A DNA stretch of 64,000 nucleotides, taken from NCBI GenBank assembly GCA_001662655.1, contig KV460212.1; one strand, given 5' to 3'. How positions within the stretch are numbered: the stretch's first letter is position 1; each line of letters opens with the position of its first letter. The notes beneath the pieces are model-generated. The model saw nothing but the letters and a program-made list of their open reading frames with translations, did not search any database and was not told the origin of the DNA. The translations under genes were made by a program, and so were the position numbers. Below are positions 3,154 to 50,965 of this stretch, in pieces. Source of the DNA: Pseudogymnoascus verrucosus. Its lineage: Eukaryota.

Positions 3154-4259
3154 TCAAACAGTCCCGCTAATACTCAACTCCCTAATCTCCTGCAACACCT
3201 GCTCAACCCTCGTATCCAAGTGGCCCTCCGCATACTGATCCCTCGTCTCAGCATCAAGATACTGCTGTACCTGCGCCATGCGCGAGTACGCCTCTGCGCA
3301 GAAGCGCAGCTGGATCTTGACCAGGGCTTCGAAGGAGGGGTCGAGGTAGGGGACGCGCAGGTCGATGAGCTGGGGGAGCTCGGTGAAGAGCTGTTCGTTG
3401 AGCTGCTCGTAGGCGACTTTGGCCATGTCGGCTTCCTTTTCGGCGCGGGGGAGCTTCGAGGCGTCTTTGTCGGGCTTCTCGACGAGCTTCTTGACTTTGG
3501 CGCGCATCGCGTCGTAGTCGAGGAGCTTGTGGTTGCGCTTCTTGATGCCTGGGGGGTGTTAGAGGGGGGGGTGGGATCAGTGCGGGGTGTTGGGTGGAGG
3601 CATACATTCGTTGATGTCGGGGAAGTAGGCGCAGAACCTGGAAATCGGCTCGAGAACAGTAGTTCTATTTATGTTAGCACGGGATCTCCGGAACGAACGA
3701 GAGAGCATACCGATATGGTCCGTCTAAAGCTTTGATCGTCTCCGCGTCTAAATCTGCCACTGCTTGCTTGTAACTTCTGCTCACTCCATCGTTTGCGCCT
3801 GAATCGCCGTAGAATGCGTCGATCGTCTCCGCAATCGCCATCTGGGATCTCGTCATAGCTATCAGAGTATCAGCATTGGTCCTGCTCGTATATGCCACTG
3901 TGCTTCCATACCTCGTAGCGAGTCTAAATATCCCTTTGCTTCCTTTTGCAATCGCAGTGATGCGGCTTCCATTGTGCGGTATCGTCTTGGAATAATGTCA
4001 GCATAGCTGCCACGATAGCTGCCTGTTCAGACCACCCACCTCTCTTCCACTTCATAATCGCGGTCGTTTGTTTTCTCGACGTGACCTGTCCATGTAAGTA
4101 TACATCATAGTACTGGGTGTGCTTCGTAAGTACCAGTCTTCATCATGACCTGGGTGGTCGCCCGATTGACATTCTTCTTGAATCCTATACCCGTCATGGT
4201 CAGAATCGCCCTCTGTATGCCAACCTTCTCAGGTACCAAAACATACCTGCCCACGACAT
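3154..4259 (-). CDS. RVS161: Amphiphysin/N-BAR protein Rvs161/Hob3 (multi-exon)
   Basis: MSWAG|FKKNVNRATTQVMMKT start across micro-exons; C-terminal ELPQLIDLRVPYLDPSFEALVKIQLRFC. Confidence 0.92.
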
Positions 4260-4696: not shown

Positions 4697-6338
4697 TCAC
4701 GCTGGAGAGTCTATCCGTGACCCATCCATAAACTCCTCTGATTCACCATCTTCTGGATCCTTAGTGCCCTCCGTCGTGTCCCCCAAGTAGCAGGCTGATA
4801 AAACAGTCCCAGCCAATAGCAAGCCTCCACAGAATGTGAATACTCTATCACGATGCGCATCGCCTAGAGAATCATATTAGCACGTCATATATAACAGACT
4901 GAAGGGATAGCACGTACCTTCTTTAGTCAAGCAAAGAAGTACAACTACGAAGAAGTTGAGTGGGATTCTCAAAAATCCGTAGACCTTTGCTCGCACTCCA
5001 TCGCCAACTATGCGGCCCCGTAGTGCTCCCATACAAGGGTAATAGATTCCGATGCAGCCCTCGAATAAACAGAAGCACCAGAATGTCAGTGTCTCGCTCT
5101 TTATCAGAACTGAAATAAGTAGCGAGGCCGTTGAGACAGCAATGGCAACTGTGAGGAAATGAGCAGGCCCTAGCATGGCAATAGACTTGCTGGCAGCCGC
5201 TTCGGAGGATCCACGGCTGAAGGCAATAGAGCCAAGCATCATAGAAGCCATAAAGGTGGCAAAGATGAGCCCGAATGGGATCGCAGATTGCTCTTTTGTG
5301 GATGGGTTAGAGTAGGCGTGGGCTGATTTGAGCGCAGCAGACCAGAAAAAGACGAAGAGGTACATGGAGCCCTCGAAGACGCAACATACGAAGCCCAATA
5401 TGAGGATTCGTTTATCTGCGGTAGTGTTAGCATACGTACGAACCAATTTACGCGATTCAAGACAAACCTTTGAGTATAGCTCTTAAACTAGACTCATCAG
5501 AAGTGCCCTTTGACTCCTCTGTCCTGTCTCCGTAGTTCTCATTCTGAGGACCAACGTTAGCCGTCCATTCGTCTGTATTGAGAGTGTCAACTTACCCATC
5601 CCCTTTTTATTATTACCATTGCAGTCATCAAGAGCACAATGGCAGCCATGAATGGGCTCGTCTTGGTGCCCGTCATAGCGACAACACTCTCTCCCACAAC
5701 ACCGGACAGAATTGCAACTACGCCATTCAGCGTCGTCATAAGGCCAAACATGCTATCCAAAGTCATGTTGCTCCTATCCAAGCTTCGAGCAAAATACTCC
5801 GTGACCATCCAAGACTCAAAGACGCTATACATCAGGGTCGTTGCAACACCGCCGAGCAACCTCCCGATGAGTAACGTGACAATCTCGCTCGAGAGCTTCG
5901 TCAAGCAGGAAAGTGCATATGTGACGCAAAATGCCATACATGCCATACGCCTGCCATACCTATCGGCGAGAGACCCAACAAATGTCGCACTAACAGCTGC
6001 AGCAACAAATCCGGCAGCAAATAGCATAGCAACTGTCGGCTCTGCGAGTCCATACTCATCTTTATAGAGCGTGTAGACATACGGTCCCTGCTTTCGCGTC
6101 AGTACAGCCGCAATATTTAGCTTTCTAGGAGGGGTCTAATTGCCTGAAGCCAGTCCGAGCCCATTACAAGCAAATAGACTGGGATGAATTTCCATTTGAA
6201 CGCTGTTGCGGCATTGTTGAGCTCGACAGACCCAGCCTTGGCATCCTTTAACGCCTCTTTGTCACGTCGATATTGCGAGTACGCCAGGCCCACGCTGCCT
6301 ACCACCAAGACCGCGAAAGTGGTCCGGTAGAGATCCAT
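4697..6338 (-). CDS. MFSD5/MOT2 (DUF791) family MFS transporter, multi-exon
   Basis: Hallmark DWLQ|GPYVYTLY, GSLADRYGRR, SVFESWMVTE, FEGSMYLFVFFW, RAKVYGFLRIPLN. Last exon ends in TGA at 4697. Confidence 0.85.
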
Positions 6339-7492
6339 GATTGATTGATTGATTGACCTAGTCCCCAGATCTCGGCTCGGGCTCTAGCAGTAGTCCTCCT
6401 CGCTCTGCTTGGCAACAACGATTGATATCCGGTGAGTCCGCTCGGGTTGCAGTTATGGCGCCAGCACTCTACACGAACAGTCAATACGTGCAAAAACCAA
6501 CAACGACTCGATCAACCTCAACACAGCCGCGACATAGGTGCGACGTACGTGTATGGAAGTCAGCTGACTGTCAATCCATTCCTCCTCGAATATATACGGG
6601 GTCTCTTGTTAGTTGTTTGACTGTTGGGGGCAGCTGTTGGAGTACATCTGGGGCTGAACAATCGAGTTGTACATACAATAGAGTACAATCCAGTACATGG
6701 GCTTGGGATCTCTTGGTTTCCCTAGGCTCCCGTTGATCGGGGTCCTATCGAATCGCGCTATCTGTGTTTCACAATCCTTCCGTGGCGGATCTTACTGATC
6801 TCAGAGGTCTGGATTATTGATTTTACACGAGCGATATCCCGTTGCGGCAAGAACGGTCCAGGAATAGGTTTTTGTATGTACTCCGTGCCGCCGATGTTAG
6901 TGGCAGTGTTAGAGTACTTGCATCTAGCCAACACACCAGACTCCACTGCGTATATTAAAATCGACAGGGACATCGACATCCATCGACAGCCCTCTCAGTT
7001 TCATTTAGCCCTTTTATACGAGATTGGCATACTATCCTTACTAGTTCTCGTATGTCCATGACGTACCGCGGTTGGGGAAAGCTTCTGGGAAGGTTGGGAA
7101 GGAAGATCACTATACTGTCGTTGGTCCGATAAAGTACATTGCAACCATACGATACTCGGTACCTTGTATGACCATCAAGGGGCTGATAATTACTGTATGA
7201 ACATACGAGTACTCCGTACAGCTAAGTCTACTTACTGCATGCGGGGAAACTTGAGAGAGGAAGGAGATCTTACCAACACGTGTGAAAGGATCAATCTCCA
7301 TCATCCCAACTGCCAGCTGTCGTTACGGAGCTACTGAGTTGCAGAGCTGAAGAGTCACTGAATTGCGATACTGAGTCAATTACCTCCTCTGTGATATTCA
7401 GAGCTCAAGCCCGTGATTCAACTCACACTTGACAGGACAGCAGCAGCCAGCTTACTCGCCTTCACGCGGATATACGCCAGCCTTACCCAACG

Positions 7493-8477
7493 ATGGCGAC
7501 CTTTGCGAGATCCAACCGGGTCGTGTTCAATGTGATCATTGGTGTCGTTGCCTTCTTGTTTTTCATGTCTGTTTACCATGTCTCGTACAATTACGATGAT
7601 ATTATAGATAAAGTAAACGGGAAGACGTGAGTTTCCCGAATTGAAGCGCCCATATTTGATGGAAGCATTGAGGCAGCCTTGCTAACATGTCAACAGTTCC
7701 CCAGAGAAACCCGCGCCGAACACGCCGCCGAAAGTTGAACCCCCCAAGATCGGAACCCCCAAGGTAGAAGACACCAAGGTTGCAGCCCCCAAGGTCGAAC
7801 CCCCCCCCAAAGTTGAAGCCCCGAAAGTCGATACCAAGAGGCCCTCCTTCCGCGAGATCGGGAAGAAGTACGGCACCGACAAGGTCACCGCGCACCACTA
7901 CCAGCACATGTACGAGAAGTACCTGGAGCCGCTCCGCGACCAGCCGCTGAAGATGCTCGAGATCGGCCTCGGCTGCGACATGTCCTACGGTCCCGGCGCC
8001 TCGTACCATACCTGGCTCGAGTTCTTCCCCAACGTCGACCTCTACTACATCGAGTACGACGCGGCGTGCGCTGAGAAGTGGGCCGCCAACACCACCGGCG
8101 CTACCATCTTCACCGGCGACCAGGCGGACGTGCCGTTCCTCAAGAAATTCCTGAACGAGACCGGAGGTGGTTTCGACGTCATCATCGATGACGGCGGGCA
8201 CACTATGGTGCAACAGAAGACCTCTATCGATATCCTCTTCGATTCGGTCAAGCCGGGTGGCATCTACTTCGTCGAGGATCTGGAGACTAGCTATGCGCCA
8301 AAGTACGGCGGTGGTCAAGGCGTCGCGACCACGTTCGTGGAGCGCGTGAAGGCCAGCCTGGATGGCATGATGCTGTCGAAGCCGACCCCGTACTTTATGG
8401 CATACGTCTACTCGGTCGACTGCATGAAGGAGGTCTGCGCATTTTCCAAGAAAATGCCTGGGGAAAAATACGACTGA
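7493..8477 (+). CDS. Type II membrane SAM-dependent methyltransferase, MycE/TylE-like sugar O-methyltransferase family (exons 7493-7626, 7697-8477)
   Basis: Short basic N-tail, one TM segment (VVFNVIIGVVAFLFFMSVY), a P-K-V-E repeat stem, then GTDK..H.Y...Y, LKMLEIGLG, GDQAD, FDVIIDDGGH, KPGGIYFVEDLETSY. Confidence 0.8.
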
Positions 8478-25498: not shown

Positions 25499-27409
25499 TC
25501 ACTCCGCAGTCCACCTCCCCCAGTACGACGGGTCGAAATTCAAGTTCCCAAGCGAGTTTAAGTCCCAATTGCCTGCCTTGATGGTAATATGCTCATCACC
25601 AACATAGAAGTTCTTAATCAACAGACCGATCTTGTTGGGCGAGTTCTCACCAAGCAAAACTGGTTTGTTGTCGTCGCTGGCATCAGTAAAGGCGCTAAGC
25701 CTGCTCCTGCCAACATTTGTCGATCTGGGCTCAAGGGACTCAATCCATACATTTTCTATTTTGAAGTTATCGATATTAGACAACGGGTTGACGCCAAAAA
25801 GTGCCGGGGAGTGTCCTTCCGCTCGCCAGTTGGATACTGTGTAGTTAGTGATGTGCGAGCTGGTGTCGGCGGTCGAGGTGGATGAATCATCCAAGTAGCT
25901 TGCGGAAGAGCCTACAAGCGCGTATGGATACTTGGTTTGCTGAGAAATATATCGCGAGTGAATGAGGTCGACATGGTCGACTGTGATGTTCGTCAAGTTA
26001 CGCTGGTACCATCCGAATTGAATGATAGGAGCAGTGTTGGTTTTCCAGGCCACGATTCTCTCAGCAAGGACGTTGGAATAGTAGGTCTTGATAACATCGT
26101 CTCCAGCGTGGTAGAAGACGTCGTGAACATGGCTGTTTGGATACATTTGGATTCCGTCCGTCTGACCGAAGAACGCACCAACTTGCTTGTAATCCGACGC
26201 GTGGATACTGAACTCTTCCATTTTCGATGCATCGGAGGCGTAGAAGTCCATCGAATTGAATGGAGGTGAGTTTGTGGTCAGGCCATTGATAGTCCATCTC
26301 GCACCTGGTTGGACGTTGTTTCCTCGCCATAACTTCAGCGAAGTAGCGTCGCTCTTTATGTTTTTGTAGCCCTCGGCTGTGTTAGCTTGATAAACGTACT
26401 GTTCACCTGAGAGCACACCAAATCCAGTCGCCTTTAGCTCTGGTTCTGGACTGTTGTACTCAATGGCCCCCTTGACGTAAGCGCCAGGAGCAATGTAAAC
26501 CCAAGTAACGGACGCAGCAAGAACTGCGCGGGCTTTGGCGGTGAAGTAGTATACCCCTGGGGCAAAGTAGACGATGGACTTATCAGTCTGGTCTAAGCCG
26601 GTCACGAGGCCAGGTTTGACTCGCAGGGTGTTGGCCTCGTCGTTTGGAATCAGATCCTTGGAGGGGAATGGGCTGGCAAAGATCAAAAGAGCATTCCGTG
26701 GTTCAACTCCAACAATCGGCATGCTGTCGTCGTAACTCGGGACGTATCCATAACCATCTGGCTTCTCGTTTTGGACGTATTGGGAGCCTTCCCCCTCACG
26801 GCCGATGCGATACTCAAAGAGATCATCCTTAAGTTCAACTGAGAAACGAACTCCGTTGGGGTTGTAGGGCACAGTGATAAGAGCGTCGCCACCCGCTGCC
26901 TTGATACGGTAGTTAAGATTCGAGGGCCGAATGATAACGTCCTTAGCAGAGATCTTCTTGCCATTGTTCCTAGATACCTTGACTACCACATCCGACCCGT
27001 ACAAGAACTGAGTCCAACCCATCGTGATCCCAACATCGACCTCGAGCGTAATCTGATCCCATTCATCACACAATGACTCGAGGTCTCCAGGAAGGCAGAT
27101 CTTGCCATTGCCGTTCCGTGGGATTGTCTCGTAGACAAAGGAGTCATAGTAGTCATTAGAAGCCTTAGATGTTGCCACCTGAACGGAGTACAGATGCGAT
27201 TGTCTGACATTGCCAACCTCCACTGGGGTCTGGGTGTTGATCTCTCCGGTAGGGTGCCACCATGTGTTCAACTTAGATGTAGTTGCAGTCCGATTGGAGG
27301 AAGTCAAGTGTCCAGCCGCATTTGATTTGCGTTCTAAGACAGCACCCTGAGAGGTATCGAGGAGGCTGGCAATAAGCAGCAGTGGCCAAATCTGCTTCGC
27401 AGAAAACAT
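25499..27409 (-). CDS. Secreted GH49 dextranase, intronless
   Basis: Signal peptide; TWWH..GEINTQTPV..GNVRQSH.YSVQV, SFVYETIPRNGNG, GVEPRNALLIFASPF, catalytic region QTDGIQMY...GDDVIKTYYS as in Dex49A. Confidence 0.92.
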   Translation of the reverse strand: MFSAKQIWPLLLIASLLDTSQGAVLERKSNAAGHLTSSNRTATTSKLNTWWHPTGEINTQTPVEVGNVRQSHLYSVQVATSKASNDYYDSFVYETIPRNGNGKICLPGDLESLCDEWDQITLEVDVGITMGWTQFLYGSDVVVKVSRNNGKKISAKDVIIRPSNLNYRIKAAGGDALITVPYNPNGVRFSVELKDDLFEYRIGREGEGSQYVQNEKPDGYGYVPSYDDSMPIVGVEPRNALLIFASPFPSKDLIPNDEANTLRVKPGLVTGLDQTDKSIVYFAPGVYYFTAKARAVLAASVTWVYIAPGAYVKGAIEYNSPEPELKATGFGVLSGEQYVYQANTAEGYKNIKSDATSLKLWRGNNVQPGARWTINGLTTNSPPFNSMDFYASDASKMEEFSIHASDYKQVGAFFGQTDGIQMYPNSHVHDVFYHAGDDVIKTYYSNVLAERIVAWKTNTAPIIQFGWYQRNLTNITVDHVDLIHSRYISQQTKYPYALVGSSASYLDDSSTSTADTSSHITNYTVSNWRAEGHSPALFGVNPLSNIDNFKIENVWIESLEPRSTNVGRSRLSAFTDASDDNKPVLLGENSPNKIGLLIKNFYVGDEHITIKAGNWDLNSLGNLNFDPSYWGRWTAE

Positions 27410-28593
27410 CTTGACTGCGGATATTGAGGTCAGACTCCTAATGATGCAGGTGGGAAAAGAAATTAGAGGACTGCCTTCAAAATAACTCTTGGGGGGACAT
27501 CATAGCTCTTTTATATACCATGGGCGGTGATGCCAAAGTCTCTCGGGGCCTTGGAATTTCCCCGAGATAATTTAATGCGGGGTTATTCCAAGCGTAAAGT
27601 ATTGGAGTAGATCCGGGGTTAAGGTAATATTAGTGAGGAACACTCTATGAAACGACAATCTTACCCTGTCAAGCTCTTCCACGCTTACTTTTGAAAGATT
27701 ATAGTGGCATTTACTTGCAAGGTTGATTTCAACGTGCTGATCAACAAAGATGCCGAGCGGAGTCGGAGGCTAGCCGCTTGAGGCAATTCTCCGTGGTCGC
27801 CAACCTCGTGGGATACCATCAGTCACTGACCTTGTTTCAAAGATCCCACGTTTTCGTGAGGGGTAGATTATAGATTTCGCAATTCGACCCCGCAATAATT
27901 GGAGATTTTCTCCTGCTATAGTGTCTAGTGAAATACATATAGACTTCATCCCGATGGTCAGTACTCGGCCTTACTATTACGGAGGTCTCGGGCGCGGGTC
28001 GGCAAGTAGAGAGCACGGCCATTATATTGCGGCGAATTCCCTTCTTAGGTTAAATGCCTGTGGTCCTTAAATCGCTAGTTTTCGACACCAGCTTGAGCTA
28101 TATACGCGGGGGTATAGTGGCCGTGATGGCCTCGCTGCTGATTTTGCGATACCAGCAAATAAAGATGAACCGGCGGAAACTGCAGTTGAAATAATTTTTC
28201 GCCGCCATGGAGACGCGATGTTTGTAATGTTTGTATTCGTCTATGTTTATGTACCATAAATTAGCGAAAAATGACATTTTATATGTGCGAAGGTATAATA
28301 ATAATAATATCCAAAATAAAATATGTCACTAAGTGCTTCTGTAAAAATATATCGAGAGTATCAGCTGAATTAATTACCAATTACTGGGCTACATATGTCT
28401 CTATAACTGAGGGCTATTTTGTCTATTCGCCTCTGATTTTCCAGCAGCAAGGTGTATCAAGGAAAGTTTGAGCTATCTAATTAATTTGTTTGCAACGAGC
28501 GATCATAGTCTAATATATATTCTATAAGTTCTTCTCTATCAAATTTGACAAATACAGATCTATGGGAAAGCCGGAGCTCTATCACTAATCTAA

Positions 28594-30785
<2,192 letters not shown>

Positions 30786-31773
30786 TCACAAATAACAAAA
30801 GAGAAAGGTGTTATATACTGTACGTCTTTCTGATCCAGCGATCGCTGGATCATACAATGGGGCTCCGAGAAGGACCCGTACGAGTGGAAGTGATACTTAA
30901 CTTACCGGAGGACCCAAATCTACAATTTGTCGGCGAACTACTGCTTCTGGACATCCATAGACAAACTTTGTAAACTCGCGCAGTACCCATACTGGGAACC
31001 CCGCCAGGTAACCGGATTGGAACGAACCGGACCACTTCAACATTCACCCCACAGTATTTAGAACCTCCGTTCGGGTGACGCATGTATCTCCACATAAATA
31101 GCTAGCGCAGTATGGAGTATGTTATATGGCGGCCTAATTCCTAAAAGAGGGAACGATATTTTTTCGATTTGAAGTTCCTGTTGGCTTCGGCGAATTTCCT
31201 AAAGTGTATAGCGTAATATTTGCTTGAGCTCCCGACGCTAAAACAATTTGGCAGTTCTTTTAGTAGCTCACTTGTCAGCTAATGGGCAAGCTCAGGGTGG
31301 AGATGTTTGGAAATCTGGGTTGACCCACCATACCCTAGGGTCAGGGTCCTGTTCTATTGGCTAGACCCCCGGAGAAGCACCGTCCCCTGTCGACCAAACG
31401 TGACAGCCTCATGGACCTGGACCGCTTTTGACTTCGGCCCTCGGCCGACACTTTGACGGGAGGTAGACTTTTCCAAATAATGGAGCGCAAATGATAGATT
31501 TCGGACTGTAGAGTACAGAGTATGGGGTACGGGGTCCGGGGCGAAGTTGTCGCATGGGTTGTTTTGGTGTCTGATGGGAGGCCCTTCTTTATGGGGAGTC
31601 TGCAATACGTGGGCATCCCAAAGAATATATAAATCACGCCATGCCGCTCCCTCACACTCTCACATTCTCTCATTATCACATCATCATCTTCTCATAACTT
31701 CGTCCCTACCTGGGGTTCTCACACATTTGTTCTACACAACACCTCACGAGGCTGCATTCAGCTATAATCGAGC

Positions 31774-33532
31774 ATGGCTGCTGATTCTCATGATGCCGAT
31801 ACAAAGGCGTCCGACGGAGATGCTACCCACGTCGATAGCAGCGCCGTAACGCGTCTGGCAGAGAAAAAAAACTCAGACTTCGCCGACCTCGTCGAGGATG
31901 CTCAGTTGGGCACGGCCAAAGAACAACAGATGTCAATCATGCAAGCCCTTAGGCTCTATCCCAAGGCCATTGGGTGGTCGGTTCTTTTGTCTACAGCCAT
32001 TATCATGGAAGGCTACGACGTCGTCTTAATGGGATCCTTCTTTGCCTTCCCTCCTTTCCAGGAGAAGTACGGTGTGCTGAACCCAGACGGCAGTTACGGA
32101 CTCACAGCAGCATGGCAAGCTGGTCTTTCAAATGCCATCAATATCGGACAAATCCTCGGCTTATTCGCAAACGGCATTATCTCAGAGCGTTTTGGTTACA
32201 GAAAGACAATGATAGGATCATTACTCCTCACAATCGCATTCATCTTCGTTCTTTTCTTCGCACAGAACGTACAGACGCTCCTCGTGGGAGAGTTCCTCAT
32301 GGGATTTCCCCTTGGTGTCTTCCAAACACTCACCGTCACTTATGCTTCCGAGGTCTGCCCTGTTGTTCTACGGTGTTATCTGACCACATACGTCAATCTG
32401 TGCTGGGTCATTGGCCAGTTCATTGCATCTGGAGTACTAAAGGGACTCGTGGACAGGAAGGATGAATGGGCCTACCGGATCCCCTTCGCTATACAGTGGG
32501 TCTGGCCAATCCCAATTCTCGTGGGCGTGTTTCTCGCTCCCGAGAGCCCATGGTGGCTAGTCCGCAAAGGCCGCGTCGAAGAGGCCAAGCAATCTATATT
32601 ACGATTAACAGGCAAAAACGACCCAGATTTCAATGTCGATGAGACGGTTGCCATGATCATCCACACAAATGAGCTCGAGAAGGAGATTGCTGCAGGTACA
32701 TCTTATGCGGACTGCTTTAAGGGCACAGATCTTCGACGTACAGAAGTTGTTTGTCTCACATGGGCGGCACAAAACCTCTCTGGGGCTGGTCTCATGTCTT
32801 ATTCCACCTACTTCTATGTGCAAGCTGGGCTTGCGACATCAAACTCTTTCAGCATGTCTCTTGGTCAATACGGCCTCGGAATGGTTGGGACGCTTTTCTC
32901 TTGGGTTCTAATGACTTACTTTGGTCGTCGTACGCTCTACGTCGGAGGCTTAGCCTCACTTTGCGTGGTCCTCTTTATAGTCGGCTTCGTCTCTCTTGCT
33001 GGCACTGAAAACGCTTCTGCGTCATGGGCTACTGGCTCAATGTTGCTGGTCTATACCTTTGTATACGACTCCACCGTCGGACCGGTATGCTATTCACTCG
33101 TTTCCGAACTTTCGTCCACTCGTCTTCGCACCAAGACCGTTGTCCTTGCAAGGAACACCTACAACATGCTCAGCATTGTCAACAACGTCATAATCCCTTA
33201 CATGCTCAACCCAACTGCGTATGTATTAAAATTTCTATCAGTGTTAAAACCATTGTAATTGCACCGGCAAGAACAGCTAATAATAATAATACAGCTGGAA
33301 CTGGGCGGGCAAGGCTGGATTTTTCTGGGGCAGTATTTGCTTTACGGTTTTGATCTGGTCCTTTTTCCGCCTCCCTGAGCCCAAAGGTCGCACCTATGGC
33401 GAACTCGATATCCTGTTCGAAAGAAAAGTCGCCGCTCGGAAGTTCAAGGATACTGCTGTTGATCAGTTTCAAGGAGACTCTAAAGTCTTCGCAGAGAAGG
33501 CCATACATCTTGAGGAGGTTGAGAAAGCATAG
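31774..33532 (+). CDS. Maltose/alpha-glucoside permease (MAL31/MalP-like), 2 exons
   Basis: LYPKAIGWSVLLSTAIIMEGYD, TYASEVCPVVLRCYLTTYVNLCW, PESPWWLVRKG, SSTRLRTKTVVLARN, LPEPKGRTYGELD. Confidence 0.92.
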
Positions 33533-34120
33533 GGTCACTTCCGTCTCCATTGGTCGGAGTAGATCAAGGTACAATATGCACGGGAACTAGACTCTTTTGG
33601 AGTTACTGAATATATAGTAGCGGTTACTCCTCAGAGGCTAAAACTGTCTAATTTCAGAATAAAATTGTCTCGCAGTGTTGGATGATCTACGTACCTGCAA
33701 ATATCAAAGTAGTTTAATGTTATTAGCGGATTGATTTAAATTATGTGTCTGTCTTATTCTCACTTTGTGAACCGCCCTGTTTGTGAGTCGAAATAGCGTC
33801 CAGGGATATATAGTTTTACTCTCGTCCTAAACCAAATCAGCAATAGTTTTTGCTGCTAATTCATTTGACAGGGTTATTTTCGACTGGTCTACCTTATCAT
33901 ACTGGTCCTCAGCCCTTCTCATAATATGTCCATGCGCTCCTATACTCGGATTAACCTTGTTCCATCCCCAGGTTCGTGGGGATCTTCCCCATGAACCTTC
34001 CCCACAACACCAAATGCCTTCTGCATCCCATGACCTCCACTAAGAATTCCACAATTCAAAACTTTACAGAACACTTATAGCTTTCACCAGACAACTTCAC
34101 TAGTGTCGCAGCATTTTGCG

Positions 34121-35870
34121 ATGCTCAGCCCCTATGGCCAAAGCGGGCCCGTCAGAATACCAGAAGTCCAATTCTATGGCAGCGTACGTCGTGCGTGCGA
34201 TTGCTGTAGAAGAAAAAAGATCCGATGCGATACCTCTCTACCATGCGGGAACTGCCGTACGAAATCGCTTACATGCACCTACTTGCATTCTCCAAAGATG
34301 AAGGGACGGGAGAAGAGCCAAGATAGTGCAGGGCTGGGTTCTATTTTCCAAAGCAATGGCGAGCCAGTCTACGAGGGGCAACAGAGATTACCAACCAGCA
34401 GCTCGTCACCAACGTCACTGGAGTATCAATTTGCGTGCTCTTTGGACAATTTGCAACCAAATTTACCGAGCAATATCTCTGTTGCAAGCCACAACGATGC
34501 AGCCTCCCTATCCGTCGGGTCGCCAGTATATCCCGAAACCTACGGTGCGCCGGGCCTAGTTGCACGGCCTGCTGCCTCTGAAGATTCTTACGATGGCTGG
34601 CCTGACAAAAAACCGCGTATCCAAGTGTCGATTGTAGATCTCTTACCGCTAATAGAGATGTACTTTGACCACCTTTTCCCGATAATGCCGGTCTTGGATC
34701 GAAACAAGTATCTCAATTCAAAAGTGCTCGAGGATCAGGTTGCTCTACCTCCAGGAGAGCATGCTTTACTAACTGCTGTTTCAGCACTGACAATAGTGCA
34801 GCTCAGTCTCCCAGGGCACTTTGTGCCGAATGATATTCCAACAATATCTGCTGGGATGTTAATCGAGGAGTGTTTACGGACGCGCCATAGATGCAATTAC
34901 ATTGAAAACCCAAATCTATCAACCGTTCTGACATCCTTCTTTTTATTTGGCTATTACGGAAACCTCGAAAAGCACAACCAAGCTCGACATTTTCTTCACG
35001 AAGCCATCTCGTTTGCTGAAGCAATTAAACTTGATGACGAAGTCTACTTATCCCAGCTGGAGACTAGACAGGAGCAGTGGTATCGAAGGACATTCTGGCT
35101 TTTGTTTATTACTGAAAGGTATATGCCAAGAATTGTTCACCGATCGGAGTTAACGGTTTTGTAGGGCATATGCTCTTCAGCAGCAGAACCGTATTAAAAT
35201 CCAGACCTCATTAAACAAACTACCCGCAGTCTTTGGATCGGAAGAGCCGCAACTTCTATACGGATTCGTCAATCTTGTCAACTTATTTATCGTCATCGAT
35301 AGCACGTTCCTATCTATGGTGAATAGTACGTCAAAAAGCGCCGACTTTTCTAAGACTTGGCTTGTTGAAGTTCTCCGCAAGCTGGCTGCGTCGTCCATAA
35401 CATATGAAACCCTTGAAACGCACCAACTAGACATCTTGGTATCAAGACAATGGCTACAGATGCGTCTGTGGCAGCTCAGTGTGAAGCAGGGCCTACTCAC
35501 TACGAACTCTACCGAGGAGCCTTTTAATTTACAATACCCGATTCTCCTTGCACGAGATGTCGTGAGAACTATCAGCTCGGTGAATCAGGAAACATTAGAC
35601 TCTCACGGTATTGGAATGGTTAGTTGGCCGAAGAGCTCTTTCACCAGAACAACTACTTACATCTGTCTGGTATTATAGGAGCAAAAGCTGGCCGATATAG
35701 CCGCCTGTTTAACAGACGTGCTAAAATGTGCTGAAGGTGATATGTCGGAGCCATATCCGCAAGGTCGTGAATACCTTGTGGCTTTGTTTGAACAACTGTC
35801 GCGGATGAGGGGAGCCCAATCGCGTTACTTGCAGCCCTTACTAGAGAAGTCCCATGCCGTCACTTGCTAG
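34121..35870 (+). CDS. Zn(II)2Cys6 transcription factor, MAL activator/MalR-like (3 exons)
   Basis: RACDCCRRKKIRCD...PCGNC......CTY; fungal TF domain YFDHLFPIMPV, SFFLFGYYGNL, RRTFWLLFITER|AYALQ, DILVSRQWLQMRLWQL, DSHGIGM|EQKL. Confidence 0.88.
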
Positions 35871-48502: not shown

Positions 48503-50965
48503 CTATGTGGCAGACCTACTATTGCAGAACTGACAACGAGCATGCGCAAAATGCCAGTCTCGTACTTTCTTCGCCTCACTCCTTCGGGCTGCATCCTGCT
48601 CGCCTAATGGCAACAGCCCAATCTTCTCTTCTGTATTCTTCGACCGACGATGAAGCTCATTATGCCAATTACTCTCATGCTGCTCCCTTACATCAACAGC
48701 TGGCTTCCGCTTAGTTAGAAAGTTTCGGAAAGAGAAACCTTCAGAAATGTAGATCTTGAACTCGAATTGCTGCTGACGTTTCCCGAATTGTCGACTCCAT
48801 TTCGTAGGGGGGATGTCGAGCAGCTCTGGCCACTTGTTGAAGGCATCTCTATCATCGAGGAATTTCTGGCCGAAGACTACCTCGCATGGCAAGTGTTTGA
48901 CGACATGAAAAATCGTGTATAAATCATCATCCCCGTCTCTATGTGATGGGTCTGCACTCCCGTGACCATCAGGTTCGAGCGGCTCGTCGGTTGCAGGTGC
49001 GTGTGGTGATTGTTCAGGAAGATCCGACTCTGGCTCACGCCAATCCAAGGTAAGATTCGAGACGTAGACCTGCCCAAGAGTCTCTATCTTTTTGTTATTA
49101 CCAAGCAATATCGTGGTCCTAGCCTCTATGCGCGCATCAATCCGAAACCCTTCCCTCGCTGCGCATTCTAGGGACATGAGGTTAAGATCTGATCCAGTGT
49201 CGGCTACAGCCTCTAGTTTTCGCCCATCAATTGTGCATCGTATCCTGCTTCGGGGGGATCCAATCCACAGCAGTGACGGGATGTTGCTTATCTCAGCCGG
49301 GCAGTTCTCAAGCAGGTGTCTATACTTGGTGAGAATCTCGGCCTCCTTTAAGAACTTCATTCCCATAACCAGAGGGACCGGGCAGTCCTCTAGGACATAA
49401 AACCGACGTTTCTTCTGCCAAAGAGGGCTGCCTGGGAGCCCAACGGTTTCTAACACCCGTCCGATTGACCACACAATATCTCCATTTCCAACTTCGAATC
49501 GCTTTATGTCTTTGGTTTTTCGGCGAATACGGAATCCGTGCTCAACAGCGCAAGCTTTCGAAATGATGTTCTTTTCCGATCCAGAATCGGGACAGGTGAG
49601 ATGATCTTGGCCATTGATTCGGACTCGGAGAACCTTTCGTCTGTTCTCACGTGGTTTTGCATTTAGTGAGAATATACAGGGGTTCTCTCGATGTCGAAGG
49701 CCAACCGCCCCCTTGTGCTTGCTACCCCTTGGGCGTCCTTGACCTGTTAGACCTGCATATATCTCTTTTCCTTCTGTAACGAGTAGCCCCTGAGAAATAG
49801 GCATAATATCAAGCTGCGAGATACGTCTAGGCGGCTCTATCGGTTTACCTCGCTCGGTCCTAATAGAACTCTCACTATACGCCTTAGGGCTTCCGATCAG
49901 AGCGTGCTGGTGCTTGCTTAGAACGTCAGAGGCAAGCTTAGCGTGCTCAGCCGGAATGTCGGTTTGGTCGCTGCTAGCTTCACGGATCTTGTTTTTATTC
50001 CTGTTAAACAGGTTAGAGATGCCGCTATAGAAGCCGGCGCGAGGGCCGTAGCTGATCGCGACATCGATTTTGCAGCTGTCATCGTCACGGGTACTGTCTC
50101 GGTAGTTGCTATTGTGACTAGTATCGTCTCTGTAGTTGCTTGGCAAGTTGGAAGAGTCGCAGAGGTAGCTGTGGAGAGGGATATGGTTGTGCGTGACTTC
50201 GACGTGCGGCAGCCGCTGCCGCCACGGAAGACCGGCGGCGACCTTGAGGGGCTCGCCCGCAATATCAGCTTGGTGACGTGCGGAGCTAGGGAGATCATCT
50301 TCGTTGTTGATCAAGGGGTCGTGCAAGCTAGAGGAGTTATGGAGGTTGTCTTCGTGATTGGTTACCGAGTCGAAAGAGTCGGTGTAATGGCTAGCGGGAT
50401 GGGCCGATGGTAATTCGAGGTGTATCTCGCCATCGTCTTGGTCGTAAGGGGAGGAGAGGGATTCGTTGGGCTCAGGGACGAGGTCTTGGATTCGTGAGCT
50501 AACCACGGGGCCCGGCGGGTTGGAGGAAGCGAAGACAGACTCGCTAGGCGCAAGCTTGCCATTCACATGGTCGACAGGATTCGTGCTTTTGACCTTCCTG
50601 TACAATATAATGTCAGTCTTCGACCTCGTCCATTATCTGAATTAACATCCGAGGTAGCAAGCGCCAACTTAATAGCTCTTGCTAATGCCAGGGGGAGCTA
50701 TGGAAGGAGATATCAAATATACATACGCCGCTCTATAGCATACGTCCTCGTAGGCTTCCCTGTATCTCAAGAGTTTATCACTACTCGTAGGAAACCACCG
50801 GCTGTGGTTCTCTAAACAATGCTTCCATAGACTCTCTCGCGACGCATAATCCCCACAGTCGGGGTCATCAAAACAGTGTATGCAACTAAATGTGCCTTTG
50901 TGTCTCCGATTAACATAATCCAAGTGCTCTTTGAGGATGTGAGACTGTGTGTCCGCCTCACTCAT
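48503..50965 (-). CDS. Protein with N-terminal C2H2-like finger and two retropepsin-like aspartic protease domains (exons approx. 50965-50727, 50597-48503)
   Basis: Exon 1 has CIHC...HCLENH. Exon 2 has VRINGQDHLTCPDSGSEKNIIS...LVMGMKFL and CTIDGRKLEAVADTGSDLNLMS...VVFGQKFL. Confidence 0.75.

Follow-up and report, generated by a model that had tools for sequence, protein, structure and literature searches.

A divergent MFSD5-type transporter and membrane-anchored sugar O-methyltransferase gene pair in Pseudogymnoascus verrucosus: a candidate fungal Golgi glycan-methylation module

What the MFSD5-type transporters carry is disputed: molybdate uptake and the import of S-adenosylmethionine (SAM) into the Golgi have both been assigned to this family, which has a human member. 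A locus of the fungus Pseudogymnoascus verrucosus bears on the question. In a stretch of 64,000 nucleotides (GenBank assembly GCA_001662655.1, contig KV460212.1; hereafter the window), the gene for an MFS_5/MFSD5 transporter on the minus strand stands head-to-head with a plus-strand gene for a methyltransferase predicted to be a type II membrane protein, the two start codons being 1,155 bp apart (an earlier note on this DNA, made from the sequence alone, had put them at about 1.15 kb). Are the two genes neighbours by chance, or does the transporter supply the SAM that the product of its neighbour uses? We find a real, conserved two-gene unit, and we think it probable that this unit is a module for supplying SAM to the lumen and O-methylating glycans. 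The earlier note had proposed such a module, and the proposal gains support from the recurrence of the pair, the joint splicing of its genes, the anchored enzyme family and the MycE fold of the enzyme.

The O-methylated sugars of fungal and invertebrate glycans are targets of lectins and antibodies, and no fungal enzymes for the O-methyl sugars of glycans are named in the literature searched. The pair is a minimal system that could be transferred to yeast. Golgi SAM import by MFS_5 proteins was proposed from mutants of Caenorhabditis elegans samt-1 and Arabidopsis GoSAMT1/2, which are reported to lose glycan or polysaccharide methylation (bioRxiv 10.1101/2021.07.06.451061). The link from MFSD5 to SAM, which the earlier note drew from gene neighbourhood, is therefore not new, being already published for worm and plant, and it is unsettled given that molybdate transport has also been reported. 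In the accessible text on SAMT-1 and GoSAMT1/2 these transporters are described by mutant phenotype and no neighbouring methyltransferase is mentioned, whereas the fungal clade, which shares PF05631 with them, is physically tied to one. New here are the fungal pairing and the enzyme families, not previously tied to Golgi SAM importers in the literature searched: a full-text search that covered few subscription papers turned up none dealing with a fungal pairing of MFSD5 and methyltransferase or with what this enzyme family does.

Recurrence and joint splicing of the pair

The transporter and methyltransferase genes have consecutive locus tags or accessions in five Pseudogymnoascus assemblies (P. 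destructans ELR02268/69, P. verrucosus VE01_02872/71 and three more strains), in Chlorociboria aeruginascens (g2726/27), in Lachnellula cervina, L. arida and L. willkommii, and in the dothideomycete Hortaea werneckii (D0863_07383/07384); in L. suecica and L. occidentalis they lie on one contig, two accessions apart. Adjacency thus extends beyond this genome and across two fungal classes, although linkage is not universal. On two contigs from the metagenome collection, one Hyaloscypha-like (L001) and one Cadophora-like (L003), the head-to-head layout is visible in the DNA, with a similar intergenic spacing (about 1.4 and 1.1 kb) and with no conserved intergenic DNA detected by blastn against the window; orientation is known for these two contigs and the window, and the other neighbourhoods are read from locus tags, accession numbers and contigs. 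The pairing is more than chance, since it recurs in other lineages while the other genes of the window are without homologues in the six fungal loci tested, L001 and L003 included (0 of 643 six-frame pieces of open reading frames, ORFs). In quick trees, moreover, Helotiales have two lineages of the methyltransferase (support 99 and 97), and to each of them corresponds a separate transporter subclade (support 91 and 100), a pattern that suggests joint duplication of the two genes. No fusion of transporter and methyltransferase was seen among 143 new methyltransferase representatives, and Pseudogymnoascus F-3775, in which the genes are on separate small contigs and the methyltransferase is a 90-aa fragment, is uninformative for linkage.

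All five introns of the pair (four in the transporter gene, one in the methyltransferase gene) are skipped in public contigs from four of 24 listed runs; of these four, X6 is the only one recorded as RNA, and the methyltransferase intron is the one intron seen skipped in it. Runs X7 and X15, whose source is a related strain and whose RNA status is assumed, contain both genes in spliced form. One X15 contig even crosses the intergenic region (window 6380-7306) and joins the two spliced genes, which is no proof of a single transcript; in that strain the two genes may have overlapping 5' ends, or read-through may join them. Adjacency confined to this genome and lacking co-expression, which the earlier note had named as grounds for giving up its proposal, is not what we observe: the pair occurs outside this genome, and both genes are spliced in the same runs.

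A membrane-anchored enzyme with a MycE-like catalytic domain

Searched with phmmer, the methyltransferase domain matches only two PDB sequences, the sugar O-methyltransferases MycE (3ssm, E 1.3e-22) and SpnK (8ia9, E 2.8e-21), and its AlphaFold model (pLDDT, the predicted local distance difference test score, 93) places the same two proteins at Foldseek ranks 1-10 (E 5e-18 to 3e-16, TM-score 0.81-0.84); the next listed match falls to E 3e-8 and a TM-score of 0.45, and COMT-like enzymes come far below SpnK and MycE. In MycE, D275 and D304 are reported to hold the Mg2+ to which the 2'/3'-diol of the sugar binds, and H278 to deprotonate that diol (PMC9275233, PMC10117803). With a 20-residue tag offset assumed for the PDB chain, D210, H213, E238 and D239 of the fungal protein (full-length numbering) align to MycE D275, H278, E303 and D304, and D210, D239 and H213 are conserved in 58/60, 60/60 and 59/60 aligned sequences, respectively. 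The fold, the pair of metal-binding aspartates and the catalytic histidine are thus in place for the MycE-like, metal-dependent sugar O-methyltransferase that the earlier note had recognised from its motifs (GTDK, LEIG.G, IIDDGGH and EDL), all of which are present (the second as LEIGLG), together with a Pro/Lys stem. The N-terminal auxiliary domain of MycE is absent, as the matches cover the C-terminal domain only, from about residue 160 of MycE. Judged from sequence and predicted structure, the enzyme would work like the MycE catalytic domain and is not to be read as a MycE orthologue.

It shares its catalytic fold and the D275/H278/D304 equivalents with MycE, SpnK, ElmMI and ThnM1, and differs from them in having an anchor and stem and four conserved cysteines, in leaving MycE Tyr208 unaligned and in lying outside any recognised natural-product cluster. 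Mimivirus R132, set beside it here by description, is likewise a stand-alone MycE-type domain and is proposed to carry out O-2-methylation of a surface-glycan sugar; unlike the fungal enzyme it is viral, lies within a sugar-synthesis cluster and, in the accessible text, has no SAM transporter alongside (PMC10117803).

The N-terminus has a hydrophobic segment near residue 10 (mean hydropathy 2.56, measured on the near-identical P0001). Such a segment is found in 72 of the 84 scorable fungal homologues (among the best 120 of 439 matches) and, among 143 new and more distant representatives, in 77 of the 105 that could be scored, as against 12/68 ORFs in non-fungal loci, and within the catalytic domains of the homologues no second segment reaches the same hydropathy cut-off. 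The protein therefore has the type II layout of a Golgi enzyme that the earlier note had described (short tail, single transmembrane segment, Pro/Lys stem, C-terminal catalytic domain), the tail being basic, in a family that is overwhelmingly N-anchored. Four cysteines are conserved in the family (C138, C169, C287 and C292), and the two pairs are intact in 117/121 and 102/114 representatives versus 6/46 and 0/64 non-fungal loci, counts which, like those for the motifs, are inflated by profile-based selection. Near-invariance in the representatives and rarity in the non-fungal loci fit a lumenal domain with disulfides.

An enzyme that faces the cytosol or acts outside the cell, beside a transporter that moves the methylated product or a nucleoside diphosphate (NDP)-sugar in place of SAM, would account for the pair differently. 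This we regard as very unlikely: topology is estimated from hydropathy and flanking charge only, N-glycosylation sequons (0-3 per fungal protein) are not uniformly conserved, and the Pfam description of MFS_5 speaks of sugar transport, but most homologues have basic residues ahead of the anchor, the anchored members typically contain paired cysteines, and the defect of the worm and plant mutants is reported to be specific to methylation (bioRxiv 10.1101/2021.07.06.451061, PMC10397214).

A second alternative keeps the lumenal supply of SAM and changes the acceptor to a glycolipid, a glycosylphosphatidylinositol (GPI) side chain or a secreted small-molecule glycoside. Each close structural relative with a characterised activity (MycE, SpnK) modifies sugars of small natural products, and sugar O-methyltransferases, SdnD and TdnD, are reported from fungal sordarin clusters (PMC12006653). 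Three observations nevertheless make such an acceptor unlikely: no backbone synthase or glycosyltransferase was recognised in L001 and L003 or among the listed long ORFs that surround the pair, selected ones of which were Pfam-scanned; the genes flanking the pair encode, by Pfam scan, Ytp1, peptidyl-tRNA hydrolase, BAR, UBC and proteasome ATPase proteins; and the eukaryotic members have an anchor and stem in place of the MycE N-terminal domain.

Among prokaryote-type homologues, L006, L008, L014, L022, L043 and L080 have an N-terminal signal-like segment, and L006 and L008 retain the first cysteine pair, suggesting that these may be exported MycE-like enzymes.

Transporter cargo, partner exchange and glycan acceptor

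The transporter exons match Pfam MFS_5 (PF05631) with 150.9 and 54.6 bits (cut-off 25), and the protein is identical at 458 of 475 positions (96%) to P0121, which itself scores 258.8 bits against PF05631 (cut-off 25), matches MFS_1 over residues 54-403 and shows nine hydrophobic segments in a crude hydropathy scan (MFS topology has 12 transmembrane segments). The earlier assignment to the MFSD5 family is thus confirmed. Pezizomycotina have two transporter clades in our quick trees, and all linked copies fall in one of them (support 94); no methyltransferase partner of the second clade was seen in these data.

The strongest new argument for SAM supply appears to be an exchange of partners, drawn from two species. 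In Acidomyces, the transporter gene and a gene for an FkbM methyltransferase are consecutive, separate genes in two assemblies (KYG40765/66 and KXL49470/71; P0128/P0338), and in Hyphodiscus a transporter (P0135, KAG0651315) is annotated as fused to an FkbM domain (PF05050) that starts with its own anchor, an arrangement that we read as two adjacent genes probably merged by annotation. BLAST detects no similarity between FkbM and the MycE-like enzyme (best E 1.4); the FkbM family is N-anchored (65/69 scorable, among the best 120 of 202 matches) and, among the matches listed, patchy (Mortierellomycota, chytrids, Hypocreales and Colletotrichum). The FkbM-linked transporters belong to the same clade as the MycE-like-linked ones, and those of Acidomyces and Hyphodiscus are sisters (support 93) despite hosts of different classes, which hints at transfer or ancient retention. 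A transporter found beside two unrelated enzymes that share only their use of SAM and a type II architecture is best read as a supplier of lumenal SAM, not as an importer of molybdate, and a two-gene unit that occurs with two unrelated families of anchored methyltransferase lends independent genomic support to SAM import. From this we would propose, tentatively and with rather less than even confidence, that one clade of fungal MFSD5 proteins forms a Golgi cassette devoted to SAM supply and able to swap clients, its neighbours naming two families of glycan O-methyltransferase, MycE-like and FkbM, both type II. These would then be the first enzymes assigned to the O-methyl sugars of fungal glycoproteins (for example, 2-O-methyl-rhamnose caps), and anchored FkbM-type proteins would become candidates for the glycan methyltransferases of invertebrates, those of C. 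elegans being said to 'remain to be identified' (PMC7614267).

Molybdate import at the plasma membrane (MOT2), next to an unrelated gene kept in place by ordinary synteny or a shared promoter, is the function that databases imply, fungal homologues being named 'Molybdate-anion transporter'. Arabidopsis MOT2 members are reported to transport molybdate in a yeast assay and to reach the plasma membrane, and the family is called moonlighting (PMC10397214). For the fungal clade we consider this reading improbable: no molybdoenzyme or molybdenum cofactor gene was recognised among the long ORFs of the window, the pair stays while flanking synteny is lost, and molybdate uptake does not predict a swap of the partner for a methyltransferase that is unrelated to it yet built in the same way.

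Under the preferred reading, in which lumenal SAM supply is coupled to glycan methylation, the MFSD5-type transporter would carry cytosolic SAM into the Golgi lumen, possibly in exchange for S-adenosylhomocysteine, which must return. The MycE-like domain of the type II enzyme would be held in that lumen, where two aspartates would bind Mg2+, His213 would deprotonate a hydroxyl of a sugar cis-diol, and the glycans of the cell wall or of secreted glycoproteins would be O-methylated on a terminal sugar. For the acceptor, our best guess is rhamnose or mannose, at its 2- or 3-OH. Plants have type II membrane Golgi polysaccharide methyltransferases fed by GoSAMT (GXM/DUF579, QUA2 and CGR), of protein families that differ from the fungal enzyme; to our knowledge, their genes are not linked to the transporter gene. 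Fungal homologues of the methyltransferase carry the database name 'Hard-surface induced protein 5', with no assigned activity, a name that presumably comes from an expression screen in Colletotrichum and for which no paper was found in the literature searched.

Rhamnose is an attractive acceptor for three reasons: the related enzyme ThnM1 is reported to methylate the rhamnose 2'-OH (PMC9275233); other database names of the fungal homologues derive from rhamnose methyltransferases; and Lomentospora prolificans, whose O-glycans are reported to be capped by 2-O-methyl-rhamnose (PMC4396840), encodes a methyltransferase homologue (P0099), a single correlation in a species whose transporter is not among the matches listed. 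A sugar context is also suggested by the surroundings of prokaryote-type loci, 11 of 21 having a neighbour of the glycosyltransferase, NDP-sugar or wzm/wzt kind (a count from 57 of 80 adjoining ORFs, made without a background control), and by a representative (P0503) carrying a domain of the O-fucosyltransferase (O-FucT) family. Sequence clusters of the methyltransferase family in Atlas come from Ascomycota and diatoms only, and we claim no animal member; together with unassigned eukaryotes, these point to a type II MycE-like family that may be widespread in eukaryotes, with one member bearing the O-FucT-family domain. Several distant representatives (P0458, P0460, P0461 and P0472) have tandem duplicated methyltransferase domains. 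On the metagenome contig L011, an unlinked methyltransferase copy has, at a distance of 3-6 kb, an ORF of the O-FucT family and further ORFs resembling type II membrane proteins (L011:927-3881), possibly a small glycan-synthesis cluster.

Several points weigh against the preferred reading, beginning with the reported MOT2 activity, the selection bias in the cysteine and motif counts and the uncontrolled neighbour count given above. The metagenome scan covered 80 loci (74 prokaryote-type, six fungal-type), and of the six fungal-type loci two are paired, three have too little upstream DNA and one, L011, has the methyltransferase without the transporter in 17.8 kb (7 kb upstream, 10 kb downstream); Zymoseptoria, Aureobasidium, Trichoderma, Apiospora, Lomentospora and others have the enzyme, with no transporter among the best 120 of 394 matches. 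The trees come from short searches with SH-aLRT (approximate likelihood-ratio) support only. The position aligned with MycE Tyr208 is Asp or Asn, a Tyr three residues further on being kept in 57/60 sequences, and the second cysteine pair is lost in 6/60, all of one clade and so one event. Coccidioides and Uncinocarpus, which are reported to make 3-O-methylmannose (PMC6693751), have a transporter in the linked clade and are absent from the best 120 of 439 MycE-like and the best 120 of 202 FkbM matches, so that a further enzyme may be involved. Finally, the literature searched yielded no account of O-methyl sugars in Pseudogymnoascus.

Gene models and surroundings

The gene models are summarised in Table 1. 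The first transporter intron (6088-6143) is GC-AG, and its removal is seen in the spliced contigs; the other three are GT-AG. An alternative methyltransferase intron (7613-7706) is ruled out by the same contigs. Window proteins are 97-98% identical to P. destructans proteins.

Table 1. The transporter-methyltransferase pair in window coordinates
Feature	Position	Strand	Basis
MFS_5/MFSD5 (DUF791, MOT2/SAMT-1/GoSAMT family) transporter gene, five exons	4697..6338	-	Pfam PF05631, identity to P0121, spliced contigs
Transporter exons (475 aa)	6338-6144, 6087-5596, 5543-5468, 5415-4918, 4863-4697	-	
Divergent intergenic region, 1,154 bp, presumed shared promoter region	6339..7492	.	Head-to-head ATGs
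Methyltransferase gene, two exons, 304 aa (ATG 7493, intron 7627-7696, stop 8477)	7493..8477	+	
First methyltransferase exon, encoding the short basic N-tail and one hydrophobic anchor (about residues 10-27)	7493..7626	+	Translation; hydropathy of P0001
Methyltransferase Pro/Lys-rich stem, start of exon 2	7697..7817	+	Sequence
MycE/SpnK-type SAM- and metal-dependent sugar O-methyltransferase domain (predicted)	7818..8477	+	phmmer, AlphaFold, Foldseek, conservation counts

Just downstream of the transporter gene lies a BAR-domain (Hob3/Rvs161-like) gene (window 3154-3860, minus strand), and transporter models of 716-735 aa (P0122, P0123 and P0254) are apparent annotation fusions with this flanking gene (PF03114 on P0122 and P0123). 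Elsewhere in the window, a long ORF on the minus strand (48503-50632) has two retropepsin-like aspartyl protease domains, with no reverse transcriptase seen in the ORF, and the region 25499-35164, which holds a GH49 dextranase-like gene (the one gene there checked with Pfam) along with alpha-glucosidase-like, sugar-transporter-like and Zn2Cys6-like ORFs, is likely to be a cluster for the use of alpha-glucan.

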